From positions 1 to 52,401 of the forward strand of contig CAZJVM010000011.1 in assembly GCA_964549305.1 (NCBI GenBank): DNA of 52,401 nucleotides. The letters are read 5' to 3'. Positions within the stretch are counted from its first letter, which is position 1. Each line of letters opens with the position of its first letter. Below the pieces are notes generated by a model. It was given only the letters and a program-made list of their open reading frames with translations. It ran no database searches and was not told the origin of the DNA. This document shows positions 7,283 to 52,401 of the stretch, in pieces. The DNA comes from an uncultured bacterium (lineage in GTDB: Bacteria; Schekmanbacteria; GWA2-38-11; J061). The position numbers and the translations under genes are program-made.

Positions 7283-8767
7283 ATGAAGATAAAAATAAAT
7301 AATGCCGTTTCTTTTAATAGAACAAATGTTGTATTTGTCACCCTTTTCCTCATTGTCCTGTTCGTACCGCTTTTTTCCCTTGCCGCGGAAAAACCCGAAC
7401 GCACTTATTCCCTACAGTCACTGAAAAAGGAAATTCTTCGTATAGCGGATTCAGGCGTTTTTACGAATTCCCGCTACGGAATATTCATTAAATCACTTAA
7501 AAACGGGGAAGTAATCTTTGAAGAAAATTCGAAAACCCCACTAATACCGGCATCGAACATCAAGATTCTCACATCTGCCTGCGCATTATACACTCTTGGT
7601 CCCGAATACCGGTTTACCACGGACATCCTGTGCGACATAAAACCTTCGAAGGGAGCAATAGGAAAGAACATCTATATGAGGGGAACGGGAGACCCCGAAC
7701 TTTATCCTGAAAATATCTGGCAAATAGCTCAAAAAATTAAACAGTACGGAATTAGGGAAATCGTCGGAAACATAATAGTTGACGGAAGCTTTTTCTCAAA
7801 GGAATTGTCGGGAAAATCTCTCCCCACTCAAGTCAATGGCACTACACTTTCGGCGACATCTGTAAATTTCAACTCAATCGAGTACAATATTTCCCCTTTC
7901 GGAGATAAAAAACCTTCTGTATCAATACATCCCTACTCCGATTATTTTTCTGTATCTAACAACATAAAAACCTCTCCTTCTTCGAGGAATAATAATATCG
8001 ATGTCAATGTTTTTGGCGAAAAGGGATTAAGGGAAAAAGTCGTAATATCAGGAGTATATAACGGAAAGAATTTAATCAGCGATTATGTGCGAATCAATAA
8101 TCCTTCGCTTTTTGCGGGAGAAACTCTCAAAAGCATTCTTATATCCTCGGGTATTCGCGTCACGGGAAAGATTATTGAAGGAACCACGCCGAAAAACGCC
8201 TTTTTGTTTTATTCCCATAAATCAAAACCACTATCGGAAATTATCGAGGATATGAATAAGTTCAGCAATAACTTCATTGCAGACCAGCTTTTTATCGCGA
8301 CAGGCGGAAATCGTGAAAAACCTCCTGCAACGGCAGACAAAGCGGTCAATGCAGAAAAAGATTATCTCAAGGGAAACGGCATTTCACTGAAGGATGTGAT
8401 AATAAAGGACGGTTCGGGTTTGTCGAGAGATAACAGAATTTCGCCTTATCTTATAGCGTCTGTTCTTGAACAAGCGTGGTCAGATTTTGATTACGGTCCT
8501 TCGTTGATATCTTCCCTGCCCATAATGGGCACAGACGGCACTCTGAAGAAAAGACTTCAGAATTCTCCTCTGAAAAGAAACATAAGAGCTAAAAGCGGAT
8601 ATATCAACGGCACATCATCCCTTTCGGGATATATAATGACAGAAGAAAAAGAGCCGATAGTTTTTTCCATTATAATTAACGATTGTAGTGATATAATAGC
8701 GGCAAAACTTGCTCAGGATAGAATCGTGGAAATAACGTCGATGTTAAACAGAGCAGGAAAAAAATAA
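7283..8767 (+). CDS. dacB: D-alanyl-D-alanine carboxypeptidase/endopeptidase PBP4 (peptidase S13)
   Basis: PASNIK (SxxK), KFSNNF (SxN), DGSGLSR, AKSG (KTG-like); N-terminal signal. Confidence 0.93.
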   Translation: MKIKINNAVSFNRTNVVFVTLFLIVLFVPLFSLAAEKPERTYSLQSLKKEILRIADSGVFTNSRYGIFIKSLKNGEVIFEENSKTPLIPASNIKILTSACALYTLGPEYRFTTDILCDIKPSKGAIGKNIYMRGTGDPELYPENIWQIAQKIKQYGIREIVGNIIVDGSFFSKELSGKSLPTQVNGTTLSATSVNFNSIEYNISPFGDKKPSVSIHPYSDYFSVSNNIKTSPSSRNNNIDVNVFGEKGLREKVVISGVYNGKNLISDYVRINNPSLFAGETLKSILISSGIRVTGKIIEGTTPKNAFLFYSHKSKPLSEIIEDMNKFSNNFIADQLFIATGGNREKPPATADKAVNAEKDYLKGNGISLKDVIIKDGSGLSRDNRISPYLIASVLEQAWSDFDYGPSLISSLPIMGTDGTLKKRLQNSPLKRNIRAKSGYINGTSSLSGYIMTEEKEPIVFSIIINDCSDIIAAKLAQDRIVEITSMLNRAGKK

Positions 8768-8789
8768 AATAAAAAAGGAGAACGCTCTT

Positions 8790-9374
8790 ATGAAACTGAT
8801 AAATTATTTCGCTTTAACGGTATTTCTCGTTTTTCTTTCATCTTGTTCGCAAAACCAGATTAACGATATTCCCATTGCGATAATACTTTTGCCTGCCATT
8901 GCCGCGCTTTCTATTGTCTGTGTAATGCTTTATATGCTCGTTGTACGGCAAAAAACGTCATTTGATTCGGCACGGAAAAATATAATCAAGAATATGCTAA
9001 CAACGGAAATCGCGCGGGCAAAACGCCATGACCATAAAACAGGAGTTTTGGTGCTGGACATAAAGGGTACTGCAGGAAGAGGCATCCATTATTTCCTTCC
9101 CGGAAAAACCGTTGATGTAGAACACGTGGAAAAATCAATAAGACAGTCAGATAAAGTCCTTCAACAGGATTTCAGAAGATATTTTGTCATCCTTTCGCAT
9201 CTTGCCGCAGATAACTCGGTGAATATAATCAAGGAAAGAATGAACAAAGTCGCGGAAGAAAAAAGCTGGCCCGACGCTAAAATCGGTGTTGCCACATTTC
9301 CCGCGGATGGTGATACCGCTGACGATTTAATCCGTTGCGCCCTCGAGGATATGGACAGAACTGTACAGACTTAG
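8790..9374 (+). CDS. Membrane protein with degenerate GGDEF-like domain
   Basis: Lipobox-like LSSC, TM helix, then EIARAKR..VLVLDI..IRQSD..IGVATFPADG..DDLI (GGDEF fold signature without the GGDEF motif). Confidence 0.7.
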   Translation: MKLINYFALTVFLVFLSSCSQNQINDIPIAIILLPAIAALSIVCVMLYMLVVRQKTSFDSARKNIIKNMLTTEIARAKRHDHKTGVLVLDIKGTAGRGIHYFLPGKTVDVEHVEKSIRQSDKVLQQDFRRYFVILSHLAADNSVNIIKERMNKVAEEKSWPDAKIGVATFPADGDTADDLIRCALEDMDRTVQT

Positions 9375-9440
9375 TCTTTCATTCAAAAGATTTTAAACTT
9401 AAAGATTAAAGCAGATTTTTAACTGCCTGCATTCGGTTTG

Positions 9441-9713
9441 TCAGCCCTCTTCTTCTTTCTTCGCATCCTTCGCTTCACCGGCGCCTTCGCCCGATTCAGC
9501 TTTCTTCTCCTCTTTCCCGCTCTTTTTCTTCGATTTTTCCTTTAACTTATTGGCTCTGTCATTTATGCTTCTGAGCTTCCTCTGCGCTCTTTTAAGCTTT
9601 TTCTTTGCCTTTCTGACTTTGATTATATCAACTTCACCTTCCACATTAACTAGAGAATCTACTTCCTTTTTTAGTTTGGCAATCAATGCCTCGATTTCTT
9701 TCTTCTCAGCCAT
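9441..9713 (-). CDS. Lys/Glu-rich coiled-coil hypothetical protein
   Basis: 90 aa ORF with SD AAGGAG; highly charged. Confidence 0.7.
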   Translation of the reverse strand: MAEKKEIEALIAKLKKEVDSLVNVEGEVDIIKVRKAKKKLKRAQRKLRSINDRANKLKEKSKKKSGKEEKKAESGEGAGEAKDAKKEEEG

Positions 9714-46075: not shown

Positions 46076-46828
46076 ATGACAGTTCCACGAATTTTTATAA
46101 AAAAAGAAAATATCAGCGAAGATACGGTAACCGCAACCGGTGATGCCTGCCACAAGATAAGCCACGTTTTAAGATCACGAAAAGGCGACAGGATAATATT
46201 CTTTGACGGTAATGGAATCGAATACGAAACAGTTGCAGAGTCATTTTCAAAGGACAAATGTTTCTGCAGGGTCATAAAGGAAATCTCCCATTCGGAGAAA
46301 GAAAAAACAGGAATAACACTTCTTCTTGGCATATTGAAAAAGGAAAATATGGAATCGGCAATAGATAAAGCATCTCAGCTCGGAGTGTCCGTAATCGTGC
46401 CGCTTAAATGCGAACGCTCGCAGGTCAGGATAAATGATTCAAAACAAAAAGATAAACAGTCAAGGTGGAAAAAAATCGCAATCGAGTCCTGCGCGCTTTC
46501 AAGACGCCTGTTTATTCCCGAAATCACGATGCCTGCAACCGTCAACAATGCCCTGAAATGTTCAAATGAAGCGGATTTAAAAATCATTTTGTGTGAAAAC
46601 GAAAAGTCGCATATCAAATATTTTTTCGAGAAAAACAAAAAAGGCGTAAAAGGCAAATCAATTGCAGTTGCAATAGGACCCGAAGGCGGTTTTACCGAAG
46701 GCGAAATTAAAGAATTTCAATCCGCTGAATTTGAAAGCGTATCGCTTGGCGATCACATCCTGAGCGCGGACACTGCCGTTGCCACCGCGCTGAGCATCAT
46801 TGGATACGAAACCGACGGTTTCAGATAA
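46076..46828 (+). CDS. rsmE: 16S rRNA (U1498-N3) methyltransferase
   Basis: HVLR, LGV..I.P..CERS, IGPEGGF, SLG..IL.ADTA. Confidence 0.93.
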   Translation: MTVPRIFIKKENISEDTVTATGDACHKISHVLRSRKGDRIIFFDGNGIEYETVAESFSKDKCFCRVIKEISHSEKEKTGITLLLGILKKENMESAIDKASQLGVSVIVPLKCERSQVRINDSKQKDKQSRWKKIAIESCALSRRLFIPEITMPATVNNALKCSNEADLKIILCENEKSHIKYFFEKNKKGVKGKSIAVAIGPEGGFTEGEIKEFQSAEFESVSLGDHILSADTAVATALSIIGYETDGFR

Positions 46829-46854
46829 ACTGCAACTATCCGTCGTCCTTGTCT

Positions 46855-46970
46855 GTCATTATCCGCCTGCTGTCATTGTCCGGCATCGACCGGACAATCC
46901 AGTCATTCCGCAGAAATAGTTTTATATGTCCCACGACCATCAATAATTAAGTAAGGAGTCCCGGAAATTA
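46855..46970 (+). repeat. GTCAT REP-like ~100-bp element, copy A
   Basis: GTCATTGTCCGG-CATCGA-CCGGACAATCC hairpin; 46871-46960 aligns without gaps to 49644-49733 (70/90 identical by hand count). Confidence 0.75.
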
Positions 46971-47756
46971 TCAGTACGAGACGCCCTTGAGGAGTTTAAG
47001 GTAGAATCCTACAATCCCGTCTCCCGCAAGAATATACAAAATAGCGCCCATTGAAAGGAATATTCCGAAGGGAATCGGATATCTTCTGCCCTTGCCGGAA
47101 AGCAAAATCGCCAAGGCGCCGAAGACACTTCCCAATACCGAACCTGCAAGCAATGTTACGACAACACCCTTTACGCCCGTAAAAGCGCCTATCATTGCGA
47201 GAAGTTTCACATCCCCTCCTCCCATTCCTTCTACTCCTGTAATCTTCTCGTACGACCACCCTATAGCAAAAAGCACTCCTCCGCCAAGGAATATGCCTGC
47301 AAGGGAATCCCAAAAACCGGTTTTCGTAAAAAAAGATAAAATCACGCCCACAGGAATGAAGTAGAGTGAAATTTCATCGGGGATTATTCTTTCCCTGATA
47401 TCCGTTCCGCATACTACCAAAAGCCCCGAGGCAAGAAAAAGCGATACCGCCAATTCCAATGACAAGCCCTTGAAATAGTAAAACAGAATGAATAGCGCTC
47501 CGGCAAGGAGTTCAACCAGGGGATACTGAAAGGATATCCTCTCTCCGCAGGACCTGCATCTGCCTTTGAGAAATAGGAAACTTAACAGCGGAATGTTGTC
47601 ATAGAATTTTATTTCGCTTCCGCAGGAAGTGCAGTGGGAAGCCGGAAATACAATTGATTCTCCCGAAGGCAGACGGCATATGCACACATTGACAAAACTG
47701 CCTACGCACAACCCAAACAGAAAAAGGTAAATAGCTGTAAAGATGGAAGGTATCAT
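46971..47756 (-). CDS. pilD: Prepilin peptidase/N-methyltransferase (A24)
   Basis: GSFVNVCI.RLP, SHCTSC, GRCRSC, GMGGGDVKL, IPFG.FL. Confidence 0.95.
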   Translation of the reverse strand: MIPSIFTAIYLFLFGLCVGSFVNVCICRLPSGESIVFPASHCTSCGSEIKFYDNIPLLSFLFLKGRCRSCGERISFQYPLVELLAGALFILFYYFKGLSLELAVSLFLASGLLVVCGTDIRERIIPDEISLYFIPVGVILSFFTKTGFWDSLAGIFLGGGVLFAIGWSYEKITGVEGMGGGDVKLLAMIGAFTGVKGVVVTLLAGSVLGSVFGALAILLSGKGRRYPIPFGIFLSMGAILYILAGDGIVGFYLKLLKGVSY

Positions 47757-48625
47757 TCCTTCGGTTTTTTAGCGGATTTTACAGGTGGATTGCAAAGTTT
47801 CACATCTTCCGCGTCGGTTGTAATGTATGAGTTGTCCTCGAGCTCAAGAAGAAGTTTCTTCGCAAGCGTGTTTATCTTTCTCACAATTCCGATTTTACCG
47901 TCGGGCAACTCTACCTTTTTCCCGTATTTGGGAAGATTTCTGTTCACTTCCCTGTAGGAGGAATACTCGTAAATAAGACAGCACATCAGTCTTCCGCACA
48001 CTCCGGAAAGCTTATTGGGGTTTAACGTGAGATTTTGCGCTTTTGCCATCTTTATGGTTACGGGCTCGAATTCCTCGAGAAAGGAAGTACAGCAGAGTTG
48101 TCTTCCGCAATGACCGAAACCGTTGCACATTCTCGCCTGGTCACGCACTCCTATTTGTCTCATCTCGATTCTAGTTCGAAACTCATAGGCAAGGTCTTTT
48201 ACAAGTTCGCGGAAATCGATTCTTCCGTCAGCGGTAAAATAGAAGACTATCTTAGAGTTATCGAAGGAGCATTCTATATTGACTATCTTCATTGCAAGCT
48301 TCTTGTCATTAACTTTCTTGAGCGCTTTTTCCATCACTTCCTTTTCGCGACGACGGCAATCTCCAAGTTTTTTCATATCCTCGTCAGTCGCCTTGCGCAG
48401 AACCTTTTTCAAGGACTTGATATCCTTCTTCTCATCTGCCACAAATACTTTCGAGCTTACGATTGCCGCTTCAAGTCCCTTATCACTGTCAACAATACAG
48501 AAATCGTCTCTTTGAATTTGTACGCCGTTAAGAAGATATTCATTACTCTTGCAACTTCCCACAAGGCGGCAACAGATGATTTCCCTTCCCTCTTCCTGCT
48601 GTTTTTCTTCTGCTTCCATATTCAT
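47753..48625 (-). CDS. ricT: PSP1 domain protein RicT/YaaT
   Basis: FTADGRIDFRELVKDLA, RIEMRQIGVRD, CGRQLCC, SGVCGRLMCCL. Confidence 0.92.
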   Translation of the reverse strand: MNMEAEEKQQEEGREIICCRLVGSCKSNEYLLNGVQIQRDDFCIVDSDKGLEAAIVSSKVFVADEKKDIKSLKKVLRKATDEDMKKLGDCRRREKEVMEKALKKVNDKKLAMKIVNIECSFDNSKIVFYFTADGRIDFRELVKDLAYEFRTRIEMRQIGVRDQARMCNGFGHCGRQLCCTSFLEEFEPVTIKMAKAQNLTLNPNKLSGVCGRLMCCLIYEYSSYREVNRNLPKYGKKVELPDGKIGIVRKINTLAKKLLLELEDNSYITTDAEDVKLCNPPVKSAKKPKE

Positions 48626-48749
48626 TCTGCGTTTATAACTTTCCCCGCGTTACGGTTTTCATACCCTTTAAAATTAAAGTTTTACCATACTATCCGCATT
48701 TTAACAAAAAAATCTTAATCTTTGAAATGTAAACAAATGTATAACAAGG

Positions 48750-49421
48750 TCAGGCAAAAGGCAAAAGCAAACCGCTTTTGTCGAGAAATAGGGTTATCTC
48801 CTTTTCTACGGCAGATAACATTTCGGGAAGTTTTAAAGAGGCATCGATTACTTTAATTCGTCTTTTTTCCTTTTGGGCGATTTTTAAATATCCTTTTCGC
48901 ACTTTTTCGTGAAACTGTTTTTTCTCCTTTTCAAATCTGCCTTCATCCCATTTGTCATCCCTGTCATTTCTCTCGGTTGCTCTCTTCAATCCTTTTTCAG
49001 GGCTTATATCAAGAAGAATCGTCAAATCCGGCTTTAAACTATCGCAGGCAAACGCGTTGATTTTTTTAACTTCATCGAGTTTCAACCCCCTTGCATATCC
49101 CTGATAGGCAATTGTGGCATCATCATACCTGTCGCATAGCACTATCTTCCCCGAATCCAATGCAGGGCGAATTAACCGGTTTACGTGCTCGCTTCTGCTC
49201 GCGCAATAAAGCATTAATTCCGTCTTGGGCGACATCCCTTTGCTTTCAGGGGAAAGTAGAATTCTTCTTATCTTATTTCCCGCTTTCGTGCCACCCGGTT
49301 CAGCAGTTATAATGAAATCAGCGCCGTTTTTTTTTAGCCATCGGGCTATATGCTCTATTGCAGTGGATTTACCGCACCCTTCTCCGCCTTCAAATGTGAT
49401 GAATATGCCTTTTTTCTTCAT
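48750..49421 (-). CDS. tmk: Thymidylate kinase
   Basis: FITFEGGEGCGKST, LCDRY, AYQG, PDLT. Confidence 0.97.
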   Translation of the reverse strand: MKKKGIFITFEGGEGCGKSTAIEHIARWLKKNGADFIITAEPGGTKAGNKIRRILLSPESKGMSPKTELMLYCASRSEHVNRLIRPALDSGKIVLCDRYDDATIAYQGYARGLKLDEVKKINAFACDSLKPDLTILLDISPEKGLKRATERNDRDDKWDEGRFEKEKKQFHEKVRKGYLKIAQKEKRRIKVIDASLKLPEMLSAVEKEITLFLDKSGLLLPFA

Positions 49422-49540
49422 TTTCTTTCCGTAATTTAAGAATGATGAAATATCATTTTATAAGAATAAAGCAAGAATGAAATGGGCATTTCAGTGCAGG
49501 CAAGAAAAACCACTATGTTTGAAAGGGATGATTCGGATAA

Positions 49541-49572
49541 TGTGGGGTGCAGACTAGCGTACCTGCCCCACA
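49541..49572. repeat. GC-rich imperfect palindrome (REP-like)
   Basis: TGTGGGG(T)GCAG-actagcgtac-CTGCCCCACA. Confidence 0.5.
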
Positions 49573-49643
49573 GTCATTCCACGAGAAAAAGTATTATGTC
49601 ATTCCACGACACCCTTTATTTGTCATTATCCATAGTTTTTCTT

Positions 49644-49743
49644 TGTCATTATCCGGCACCGACCGGATAATCCGGTCTTTGCACAGCTATAGGTTTGTAT
49701 GTCTTGCGGCAATAATTAATTAAGCAAGGTGTCTCCGGATTAT
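49644..49743 (+). repeat. GTCAT REP-like ~100-bp element, copy B
   Basis: GTCATTATCCGG-CACCGA-CCGGATAATCCGG ... CCGGATTAT. Confidence 0.75.
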
Positions 49744-49800
49744 AAACTTTGAGTGAGGAGGAAACTGGATATAATACAATATTTACAATTCTCAATTCCT

Positions 49801-50241
49801 TTACTTCAAATTATCTATCCAATTATAAATTGAAAAAGAGATATTCTTATTAGTTTCTTTAACTGTATTAACAAGCGGCTTCAGTTCTTCCCAGCGCAAA
49901 TTAAAACTGTATGAGTGAACAAAATAATGCCTGAAAGACAAGAATGATAAAAGAGAATGGAATAACTCCTCAGCAATAATTCCCTTTTCAAAACAAATCT
50001 TAAGCAAATCTTTATGCCATGTTGCTGAATTTTTTATTTTACAATTCTCAAATTGCAAAACTCTTTTAATAATATTTTCAGTACCACTGTAATAATTGTG
50101 AAGAAATGTAGCAATCGCAGCTAATTCTGCTTTTGAATACTCTGATTTATTTTCATCCAAAACAGAAAAAAGTTCATTAAGTACCATACTGATGTTTTCA
50201 AATTCAACATCACAGTATTCTTTAAGCCGCTTTTTGTTCAT
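49801..50241 (-). CDS. HEPN-domain RNase toxin (HepT-like), copy 1
   Basis: RHYFVHSY = RX4HXY motif; overlaps upstream MNT gene. Confidence 0.88.
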   Translation of the reverse strand: MNKKRLKEYCDVEFENISMVLNELFSVLDENKSEYSKAELAAIATFLHNYYSGTENIIKRVLQFENCKIKNSATWHKDLLKICFEKGIIAEELFHSLLSFLSFRHYFVHSYSFNLRWEELKPLVNTVKETNKNISFSIYNWIDNLK

Positions 50242-50509
50242 ACACCAATTTGCCTTCTTGAAAAATAATATTTTTTAGTTTTACTGATGCTTCTGACAAA
50301 TCAATAACATCAACCGTTTTTGACATCTTATAAAAAAGCTCTCCATAGAATTTAAAAAAAACGCCCTCCGGTATTTCATTTACAGCAAAATCATAATCAT
50401 TTATATCTTCATCATCTTCATATAGAGAAGACCCAATCAAATACAACTTTCCTATTTTATATTTTTTTGCTATCTCTATTGCCAAATCCAATTCATGTTT
50501 TGGTATCAT
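50222..50509 (-). CDS. Minimal nucleotidyltransferase antitoxin (MntA-like), copy 1
   Basis: GSSLYEDDEDINDYD = GSX10DXD; VDVIDL; 95 aa. Confidence 0.9.
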   Translation of the reverse strand: MIPKHELDLAIEIAKKYKIGKLYLIGSSLYEDDEDINDYDFAVNEIPEGVFFKFYGELFYKMSKTVDVIDLSEASVKLKNIIFQEGKLVYEQKAA

Positions 50510-50575
50510 ATTTACCCTTTCAGAAAATCAGAAAGTATTTTATCCATTTAACAAATTATTTACCTTATGTTTTTT

Positions 50576-50612
50576 TATAGTAAGTGTACTATATTTTATC
50601 ACACTTCTTCAA
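50576..50612 (-). promoter_or_regulatory. Putative MNT-HEPN promoter with palindromic operator (repeated at 51687-51723)
   Basis: Minus strand TTGAAG-N18-TACACT; perfect inverted repeat TATAGTA-AGTG-TACTATA over the -10. Confidence 0.45.
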
Positions 50613-50754
50613 AAAATATTCTAACGTAAATGACATAACACATTGTTTTTGCCAGATTTTCTGTTCCAAATCCACACTGTATGTAACTGAGCTATCTTTC
50701 TTTACCGTGTAATTTACCGACACCCTTTATTTGTCATTATCCATAGTTTTTCTT

Positions 50755-50854
50755 TGTCATTATCCGGCACCGACCGGATAATCCGGTCTTTGCACAGCTA
50801 TAGGTTTGTATGTCTTGCGGCAATAATTAATTAAGCAAGGTGTCTCCGGATTAT
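50755..50854 (+). repeat. GTCAT REP-like ~100-bp element, copy C (duplicate of B)
   Basis: Identical to 49644-49743 at +1111. Confidence 0.75.
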
Positions 50855-50911
50855 AAACTTTGAGTGAGGAGGAAACTGGATATAATACAATATTTACAAT
50901 TCTCAATTCCT

Positions 50912-51352
50912 TTACTTCAAATTATCTATCCAATTATAAATTGAAAAAGAGATATTCTTATTAGTTTCTTTAACTGTATTAACAAGCGGCTTCAGTTCTT
51001 CCCAGCGCAAATTAAAACTGTATGAGTGAACAAAATAATGCCTGAAAGACAAGAATGATAAAAGAGAATGGAATAACTCCTCAGCAATAATTCCCTTTTC
51101 AAAACAAATCTTAAGCAAATCTTTATGCCATGTTGCTGAATTTTTTATTTTACAATTCTCAAATTGCAAAACTCTTTTAATAATATTTTCAGTACCACTG
51201 TAATAATTGTGAAGAAATGTAGCAATCGCAGCTAATTCTGCTTTTGAATACTCTGATTTATTTTCATCCAAAACAGAAAAAAGTTCATTAAGTACCATAC
51301 TGATGTTTTCAAATTCAACATCACAGTATTCTTTAAGCCGCTTTTTGTTCAT
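50912..51352 (-). CDS. HEPN-domain RNase toxin (HepT-like), copy 2
   Basis: Translation identical to 49801-50241. Confidence 0.88.
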   Translation of the reverse strand: MNKKRLKEYCDVEFENISMVLNELFSVLDENKSEYSKAELAAIATFLHNYYSGTENIIKRVLQFENCKIKNSATWHKDLLKICFEKGIIAEELFHSLLSFLSFRHYFVHSYSFNLRWEELKPLVNTVKETNKNISFSIYNWIDNLK

Positions 51353-51620
51353 ACACCAATTTGCCTTCTTGAAAAATAATATTTTTTAGTTTTACTGATG
51401 CTTCTGACAAATCAATAACATCAACCGTTTTTGACATCTTATAAAAAAGCTCTCCATAGAATTTAAAAAAAACGCCCTCCGGTATTTCATTTACAGCAAA
51501 ATCATAATCATTTATATCTTCATCATCTTCATATAGAGAAGACCCAATCAAATACAACTTTCCTATTTTATATTTTTTTGCTATCTCTATTGCCAAATCC
51601 AATTCATGTTTTGGTATCAT
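51333..51620 (-). CDS. Minimal nucleotidyltransferase antitoxin (MntA-like), copy 2
   Basis: Translation identical to 50222-50509. Confidence 0.9.
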   Translation of the reverse strand: MIPKHELDLAIEIAKKYKIGKLYLIGSSLYEDDEDINDYDFAVNEIPEGVFFKFYGELFYKMSKTVDVIDLSEASVKLKNIIFQEGKLVYEQKAA

Positions 51621-51843
51621 ATTTACCCTTTCAGAAAATCAGAAAGTATTTTATCCATTTAACAAATTATTTACCTTATGTTTTTTTATAGTAAGTGTAC
51701 TATATTTTATCACACTTCTTCAAAAAATATTCTAACGTAAATGACATAACACATTGTTTTTGCCAGATTTTCTGTTCCAAATCCACACTGTATGTAACTG
51801 AGCTATCTTTCTTTACCGTGTAATTTACCGACACCCTTTATTT

Positions 51844-51874
51844 GTCATTATCCGACACCGACCGGATAATCCGG
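51844..51874 (+). repeat. GTCAT REP-like hairpin, copy D (hairpin only)
   Basis: GTCATTATCCGACACCGACCGGATAATCCGG. Confidence 0.75.
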
Positions 51875-51926
51875 TATTTATTCCGTGTCATCCTTTCACC
51901 GAGTCATTGCCCAAAAAAAGCATTTA

Positions 51927-51999
51927 GTCACTCTCCGATTTATTCGGGGAATCCAGTTTTTAATTTCCTCTGGATCTTCCAGTCAAGCTGGAAGATGAC
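51927..51999. repeat. Inverted REP doublet (REPIN/BIME-like)
   Basis: GTCACTCTCCGATTTATTCGGGGAATCCAG-N13-CTGGATCTTCCAGTCAAGCTGGAAGATGAC. Confidence 0.75.
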
Positions 52000-52101
52000 A
52001 AAAAGAGAAAAAAGTCATACTCCTACCTCTTTTACTATGGAAAAATATCCGGTTTTACCTATGGAATTTATTATGGCGTTTACTTAATCTTAAGTATAAA
52101 T

Positions 52102-52313
52102 GGGTCTTGCATCCAACTCTTTTCACTGTGCCGTAAAAAAAAGACCCGGCGAAAGGGCAACGCGGTGACGCGGAGTAAAACAGACTAATTCCTTTTAAAA
52201 AGGAGAGACTGAGGGTTAAAAATTTATCGTTGTCCGAAGGCAGACGCCGTAGGCGGATAGCAAGTTTAATAAAACTGTCACCCTCCCTTAGTCCCTCCCG
52301 TCGAGAGAGGGAA
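52102..52313. repeat. Cluster of other degenerate short palindromes (REP-like)
   Basis: GGGTCTT...AAGACCC; CCTTTTAAAAAGG; CGCCGTAGGCG; CACCCTCCCTTAGTCCCTCCCGTCGAGAGAGGGA. Confidence 0.45.
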
Positions 52314-52401
52314 ATATTCTAATCGGAACAGACCACTTCCTTTTAATATGTAAACCCGACCCCGGATAACCTGTCAGCTTTTACATTCTTCCGTATGTCT
52401 T

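Follow-up and report, generated by a model that had tools for sequence, protein, structure and literature searches.

An exact tandem repeat of a HepT/MntA-type toxin-antitoxin module within a REP array in the draft genome of an uncultured Schekmanbacteria bacterium

Shyamala, Schneider and Ames reportedly described, in 1990, tandem chromosomal duplications mediated by repetitive extragenic palindromes (REPs) in Salmonella and E. coli, and Kofoid and colleagues are said to have placed join-points of tandem duplications in REPs in 2003. In another report, the relevant parts of which stress short homologies and template switching, REPs lay at four junction sequences among 31 amplified isolates (PMC1428787). 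Here we describe a comparable locus in an uncultured bacterium of the Schekmanbacteria. It lies on a contig of 52,401 bp (CAZJVM010000011.1 of assembly GCA_964549305.1; C11 in our numbering), which was analysed whole and is called the window below; the genome is a 169-contig, 2.94-Mb draft judged 100% complete by its marker genes. There, a unit of 1111 bp carrying a toxin-antitoxin gene pair stands twice in exact tandem within an array of REPs. Like the Salmonella and E. coli duplications, this one has its join-point in short imperfect extragenic palindromes, and no mobile-element enzyme is needed to account for it. Unlike them, the unit is 1.1 kb long with toxin-antitoxin genes as its cargo, the REPs belong to the CGTC type, the host belongs to an uncultured deep-branching lineage, and the duplication is known from a draft assembly, not from experiment.

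The palindromes, too, have described counterparts. According to the parts of Di Nocera et al. (2013, PMC3733652) that concern us here, REPs of the CGTC-tagged superfamily consist of a CGTC or TGTC (or CCTC) tag, an 8–9-bp stem whose first and second pairs are A-T, a loop of 4–5 nt and a CCA tail; they occur as dimers and clusters, show no association with transposase genes, and include the dRS3/NIME arrays of Neisseria and RPE-4/6 of Rickettsia.

Comparison of the window with itself showed that positions 49607–50742 equal 50718–51853 with zero mismatches over 1136 nt, at an offset of 1111. The layout can be written J-unit-J-unit-J, that is, two copies of the 1111-bp unit, each opening with a 25-nt direct repeat that we call J, followed by a third J. 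Exactly three copies of J exist in the 2.94 Mb, at 49607, 50718 and 51829, all of them at this locus. At the unit-to-unit junction, the unit ends in ..GTGTAATTTAC, and J and the unit start ATAGTTTTTC.. follow. The GC content of the unit is 29.9%, against 41.4% for the genome. An earlier reading of this DNA, made from the sequence only, had reported the exact duplication, the three positions of J and a cargo richer in AT than its surroundings; all three observations are accurate, and the duplication is far beyond what chance would produce.

The borders of the duplication are built from the same material. What we call half-REP units each begin with GTCATT and represent the 5' half of a REP without its return arm. 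On the left, three of them (at 49573, 49598 and 49622) lead into a REP at 49645; on the right, a degenerate copy of the second half-REP unit is followed by a variant REP, termed REP', at 51844. J comprises the end of the second half-REP unit plus the first 10 nt of the third, and is thus a seam joining two units of the REP array. When the left and right borders are aligned, 55 of 61 positions are equal, 25 nt are exact, and the single indel, of 23 nt, amounts to one extra half-REP unit. J is present at all three borders, so that the join-point falls inside directly repeated REP-derived sequence that also flanks the array. As for the hairpins, the perfect form ATTATCCGG-N6-CCGGATAAT occurs in two copies (49648 and 50759), while the third (51847) retains eight of nine stem pairs, with one mismatch; REP' is nevertheless the closest relative of REP copies 1 and 2 in the genome (40/43 nt). 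The same hairpin had been said to lie on both sides of each unit. Direct REP-type hairpins do bracket the cargo, but the third copy is an imperfect one. The coordinates are collected in Table 1.

Table 1. Features of the duplicated locus and its surroundings (window coordinates)
Feature	Position	Strand	Description
Half-REP array	49573..49644	+	three tandem units of 25, 24 and 23 nt, leading into REP copy 1
J copy 1	49607..49631	+	25-nt exact direct repeat
Duplication unit 1	49607..50717	+	1111 bp, exactly identical to 50718-51828
REP copy 1	49645..49675	+	tGTC tag, 9-bp stem ATTATCCGG, loop CACCGA, return arm, tail CCGG
hepT copy 1	49801..50241	-	HEPN-domain RNase toxin (predicted), 146 aa, Rx4H R104/H109
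mntA copy 1	50222..50509	-	minimal nucleotidyltransferase antitoxin (predicted), 95 aa, upstream of hepT, 20-nt overlap
J copy 2	50718..50742	+	join-point of the tandem duplication
Duplication unit 2	50718..51828	+	1111 bp
REP copy 2	50756..50786	+	identical to REP copy 1
hepT copy 2	50912..51352	-	identical to hepT copy 1
mntA copy 2	51333..51620	-	identical to mntA copy 1
J copy 3	51829..51853	+	5' part of REP'
REP'	51844..51874	+	40/43 nt shared with REP copies 1 and 2; one stem mismatch
Inverted REP pair (BIME/REPIN-like doublet)	51927..51999	+/-	+ copy at 51927, - copy ending at 51999; opens the repeat-rich right flank
Further family REP	46872..46902	+	same orientation as REP copy 1, across the core operon pilD-PSP1-tmk from it
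tmk (thymidylate kinase)	48750..49421	-	conserved left neighbour; orthologues in the related genomes G001 and G002

Each unit carries, once and on the minus strand, the pair of minimal nucleotidyltransferase (MNT) and HEPN genes that the earlier reading had recognised. The HEPN protein matches PF20797 (HepT-like_2; E 3.2e-19) and the MNT protein matches PF18765 (Polbeta/MNT; E 2.3e-9). Arg104 and His109 of the Rx4H motif are invariant in all 13 aligned HepT homologues, and the MntA translation contains Gly26-Ser27 and Asp38-x-Asp40, that is, the GS...DxD motif. Against the structures of the PDB, MntA gave a weak match to the MNT antitoxin 7ae2 (E 0.01), whereas HepT had no real match among PDB sequences (best E 0.096, to an unrelated protein). 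Judged by these domains and motifs, the pair appears to be a distant member of the HepT/MntA (type VII) toxin-antitoxin systems. It shares with them the antitoxin gene placed upstream of, and overlapping, the toxin gene, together with the intact Rx4H motif; it differs in that HepT falls in HepT-like_2, without a match in the PDB, and in that MntA is just 95 aa long. In type VII systems, as the parts of two reports that deal with the mechanism describe it (PMC7641770, PMC11586414), the RNase toxin is curbed through AMPylation of HepT by MntA, and by analogy the same mechanism would be expected of this pair. The highest identity among HepT homologues is 60%, the homologues being found in metagenome-assembled genomes labelled Nitrospirota, Acidobacteriota, Bacteroidetes and Deltaproteobacteria.

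A candidate promoter of the module's own, which had also been suggested, did not emerge. A consensus scan gave 11 sites against 13.1 ± 4.5 in shuffled sequence, with zero minus-strand sites between mntA and the unit end. The local REPs themselves can also be read as sigma-70-like TTGTCA-17-GATAAT (10/12), at 49643–49671, 50754–50782 and 51842–51870 on the plus strand; these sites point antisense into hepT, and the regional total of promoter-like sites is not above that of the shuffles. In metagenome contigs from JGI, loci related to HepT were sought by pattern, with 93 matches and none confirmed. A 9665-bp JGI contig does carry a module more than 90% identical to this one, and would represent the locus as assembled independently. 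There, a frameshift close to the end of mntA joins it to hepT in a single open reading frame (ORF) of 236 aa (protein P0121), which also has an E31K change. Either the fusion is a natural variant, or it reflects an error in sequencing; MNT-HEPN systems with fused genes have been described (PMC13000451).

The REPs of this locus belong to a family dispersed through the genome. A strict pattern finds 29 copies. When the hairpin was searched for less strictly there were 56 hits, whereas three shuffled genomes yielded 9, 18 and 17. The family form is a T/C-GTC tag, a 9-bp stem beginning with AT, a loop of 5–6 nt ending in GA, the return arm, and CCA(G). Thus, the base preceding GTC is T or C in 27 of the 29 copies (A in the other two); the stems are all 9 bp, most beginning with AT and a few with AC; loops of the CTTGA type have 5 nt and those of the CACCGA type 6 nt, the length found in the three local copies; and the tail is mostly CCAG or CCAT, with CCGG in the three local copies. 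Ten different stem sequences occur, every one perfectly paired, which indicates that structure rather than sequence is conserved. In some cases a REP and a second, inverted copy form a pair. Of the 29 copies, 15 are no more than about 250 nt away from a contig end; the assembly is therefore broken by this family, whose copies are undercounted. Among 40 other genomes, only the same-family genome G002 matches the strict pattern, and it does so once.

By its sequence features the hairpin family fits the CGTC-tagged REP superfamily, with which it shares the unpaired CGTC/TGTC tag, the 9-bp stem starting with A-T pairs, the short loop, the CCA tail, the occurrence as dimers and clusters, and the lack of a cognate transposase gene. 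Several differences were found. First, the loops here are of 5–6 nt, as opposed to the 4–5 nt described, and the three local copies end in CCG instead of CCA. Second, tandem half-REP units of 21–25 nt are present here, none being described in the sections of PMC3733652 that we draw on. Third, the host lineage lies outside the five phyla listed there. The half-REP units comprise a GTCAT head, the 5' arm and a C-rich spacer, with no return arm; two to four of them stand in tandem before many of the REPs, as in the window and also at C62 9600–9745, at C24 36580–36650 and at the starts of C125 and C147. They may be a trace of how REPs multiply, and as such may bear on REP multiplication without a known transposase. 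Head-to-tail clusters of three or four direct, complete REPs at a spacing of 38–95 nt, comparable to REP and REP' around the module, exist without cargo (C166 67–219 and C31 30983–31168).

Other identities were considered for the hairpin. A terminator was rejected, there being no T-run after it on either strand, and so was a tyrosine-recombinase (dif/pdif-like) site, given loops of either 5 or 6 nt, covarying arms and copies in the same orientation. Rfam had zero family matches to positions 46700–52401 at E values up to 1. When the local REP is folded as DNA, the minimum-energy fold favours a shorter, GC-rich hairpin, ACCGGA-TAA-TCCGGT, over the 9-bp AT-rich stem; the latter was retained because it covaries across the REP family.

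How, then, did the unit come to stand twice? We consider a real tandem duplication through homology within the REP array to be the best account, with a probability of roughly 0.55. An AT-rich type VII module, acquired horizontally, would have come to lie inside a CGTC-type REP array where the spacer upstream of tmk is enlarged. As a single copy, the module would be flanked by imperfect direct repeats of about 60 nt, each made of a half-REP unit plus a REP and including the 25 exact nucleotides of J. Unequal recombination between sister chromosomes, or replication slippage or template switching, between these repeats would yield J-unit-J-unit-J, and no dedicated nuclease or cassette machinery would be needed. 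Recombination between REPs was among the options that the sequence-only reading had offered, and it is the one best in keeping with the matching borders and with J at all three of them. Since the copies have not diverged, the event would be very recent or still segregating in the population. If it is segregating, two copies may represent the shortest assembler path through the unit-to-unit junction, and the true copy number may differ.

Several points weigh against this account. First, the duplication is known from a draft assembly, and the public contigs give neither its junction nor a doubled depth. Second, it is the sole exact repeat of at least 100 nt in a scaffolded short-read draft; its right end falls 548 bp short of the end of the contig, and the locus lies among repeats that break the assembly elsewhere. 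Third, for RecA-dependent exchange an exact match of 25 nt is short, which makes it necessary to invoke slippage or template switching. Fourth, a REP-mediated duplication does not explain the first arrival of the module between near-identical REP units.

The second of these points would equally suit an assembly artefact, in which one copy is real (J-unit-J) and the second was written by the assembler, the scaffolder or a gap closer on a second passage through the repeat-rich stretch. The repeat is the only long exact one in 2.94 Mb and its copies show zero divergence; the scaffolded draft has 37 gaps of exactly 100 N, and the duplication sits close to a contig end among REPs, over half of which lie near such ends. 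The public data for the locus are short Logan contigs of three runs. None of them falls on 50435–50742, which leaves the junction uncovered, and a trace from run X3 lies on 50330–50434. A contig from run X2 passes unbroken from the left flank through J into the unit, as a single-copy allele predicts, which at a depth of 4.5 is a weak hint. Nevertheless, at k-mer lengths (k) above about 27 the contig needs the unit-end/J/unit-start junction to be present in the reads. J's flanks differ on both sides, moreover, and k-mer collapse alone would not produce a second unit. The junction in the contig would thus imply junction reads, the exceptions being a k of no more than 25 and a misjoin by a gap closer. 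The assembly also retains another near-exact tandem repeat (contig C8, 2 x 462 nt, 98.7% identity). On balance an artefact seems to us rather unlikely, while being the rival that survives best.

The C8 repeat (57717–58648) is the only other long repeat found within a contig. It is in frame, with 154 aa per copy, and sits in a minus-strand ORF with a histidine-kinase-like H-box (..AHTMNSPLT..). J itself, with one position free to vary, had no match among JGI metagenome contigs.

In REPIN-RAYT systems, integron attC cassettes and pdif modules, small hairpin-forming repeats bound gene-sized units, and IS110/Piv-like enzymes use the dRS3 repeats of Neisseria. The locus shares with the first three the small hairpin repeats at the borders of a gene-sized unit, and the sequence-only reading had proposed for it a REP-framed cassette system of this kind, analogous to attC or pdif modules and served by an HUH/RAYT nuclease. 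On such an explanation, direct REP hairpins are recombination sites at which a nuclease or recombinase acting in trans (HUH/RAYT or IS110/Piv-like) captures, excises and amplifies cassettes. The unit is indeed the product expected if a 1111-bp circle with one J had integrated at a chromosomal J, and within the genome REP has no closer relative than REP', nor REP' than REP. In addition, each of the two MNT-HEPN pairs of this genome adjoins an array of the REP family, and searches of G001, a genome of the same genus, recovered neither: there was no cassette DNA and no match to the MNT protein of the second pair. Two of two is suggestive but anecdotal. The second pair (PF18765/PF01909 plus PF05168), on contig C62 at 8462–9491, is the only other small MNT-HEPN pair in the genome. 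It encodes a winged helix-turn-helix MNT protein of 197 aa and a HEPN protein of 159 aa (PF05168) at 29–35% GC (positions 1963–2992 of our locus L027). At the syntenic position of G001 no pair of this type was present, on a contig that stops 695 bp past the neighbouring gene.

Much stands against such a system, beginning with the enzymes. In this genome, for all its completeness on marker genes, the Y1_Tnp family (PF01797) gave 0 matches, in a search that was positive in 6 of 14 control genomes and in a draft of 169 contigs that breaks at REPs; IS110 (PF01548) likewise gave 0 matches in a search positive in control genomes. A RAYT gene flanked by the same REP, as the cassette idea had called for, was accordingly not among the genes of this draft. 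The four nearest relatives (G001–G004) have two to eight PF01797 matches each, but their Y1 transposase genes are flanked by unrelated hairpins, the seven loci inspected having other hairpins or none; and the relevant part of PMC3733652 reports CGTC REPs without transposase association. Within the window, as had been noticed before, no transposase or integrase domain was found in the 48 ORFs at the E-value limits used. The integrase of an integron was likewise absent from these 48 ORFs, IntI not having been searched genome-wide.

The distribution of the REPs is no more favourable. Direct REPs (46872 and 49645) bracket the core pilD-PSP1-tmk operon as well as the cargo, and the neighbours of 34 REP positions are mostly long genes of 0.39–0.49 GC. 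The C62 pair has its half-REP array and REP on one side only, that of the promoter. The link between hairpins and accessory cargo that the earlier reading expected did not appear, REP loci and low-GC islands being unlinked genome-wide: of 121 islands, 2 are found no more than 400 nt from a REP locus (24 loci), against 1.66 under random placement (P 0.50). The unit had no match in the plasmid and phage collections searched. The sites themselves also differ from those of the known systems. The REP is a 31-nt near-perfect palindrome, not an imperfect site of the attC type, and is found next to ordinary genes as well; unlike attC or pdif sites, its flanking copies have the same orientation and covarying stems, which points to a structure rather than a fixed protein-binding sequence. 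We thus regard a mobile cassette system as improbable, and it would be a long shot that CGTC-type REP arrays serve as landing or amplification sites for small accessory modules in this lineage. The half-REP units could in that case have been left behind as the GTCAT head was cut and rejoined again and again. If true, an uncultured phylum would possess a capture system resembling NIME/dRS3, and there would be an initial clue to a mobiliser of CGTC REPs.

The least probable explanation, and to our mind a very unlikely one, is a single integrated copy accompanied by an excised 1111-bp circle, or a population mixed between one and several copies: it should give the same short-read graph topology as a tandem duplication, the assembler meeting the unit-to-unit junction and writing the smallest path, with two copies, and direct repeats of 25–60 nt permit loop-out excision, but the unit has no replication function, so that a circle would be transient and rare.

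With REP-mediated duplication as the preferred account, the kind of event, the HepT/MntA module and the CGTC-tagged repeat are each known, and the lineage is little studied. The locus would add one more case in which extragenic palindromes supply the homology for a local duplication, here of a toxin-antitoxin pair, and as such matters little. Somewhat more useful, if modestly, are two further findings: a deep-branching, uncultured lineage that lies outside the catalogued phyla has a REP family of the CGTC type whose stems clearly covary, and half-REP units stand in tandem before these REPs. The case also illustrates that, in short-read metagenome bins, a perfect tandem repeat calls for proof from the reads.

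The surroundings bear on how the module arrived. In G001 the tmk DNA is 69% identical and the gene order is a ferredoxin-like 383-aa gene, 187 bp of spacer, tmk and PSP1; the 187-bp spacer contains neither a REP nor a cassette. In the genome studied here, the orthologue of the ferredoxin-like gene ends 25 nt before the end of contig C59, which probably adjoins the right end of the window, to judge from this shared order. So placed, C59 implies that the spacer upstream of tmk has grown to at least 3005 bp, against 187 bp in G001, the additional sequence being made up of the REP array, both copies of the module and a patchwork of other interspersed repeats, at least four in number. The cassette DNA had no convincing match in 40 other genomes (one 55-nt match, E 9e-4, was disregarded), and the HepT homologues, at no more than 60% identity, come from genomes bearing other labels; for these reasons the module was likely acquired horizontally. 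In the independent run X2, a 765-nt contig spans the tmk-side flank, J, the REP and hepT at about 98% identity, and the module therefore occupies the same site in another sample.

The other 43 window ORFs scanned are housekeeping genes or have no Pfam match. To the right of the duplication, positions 51854–52401 hold at least four interspersed repeat families, with copies on contigs C113, C95, C30, C143, C55, C54, C82, C9 and C139, and a 48-nt piece (52265–52316) is also multi-copy in the unrelated genome G014.

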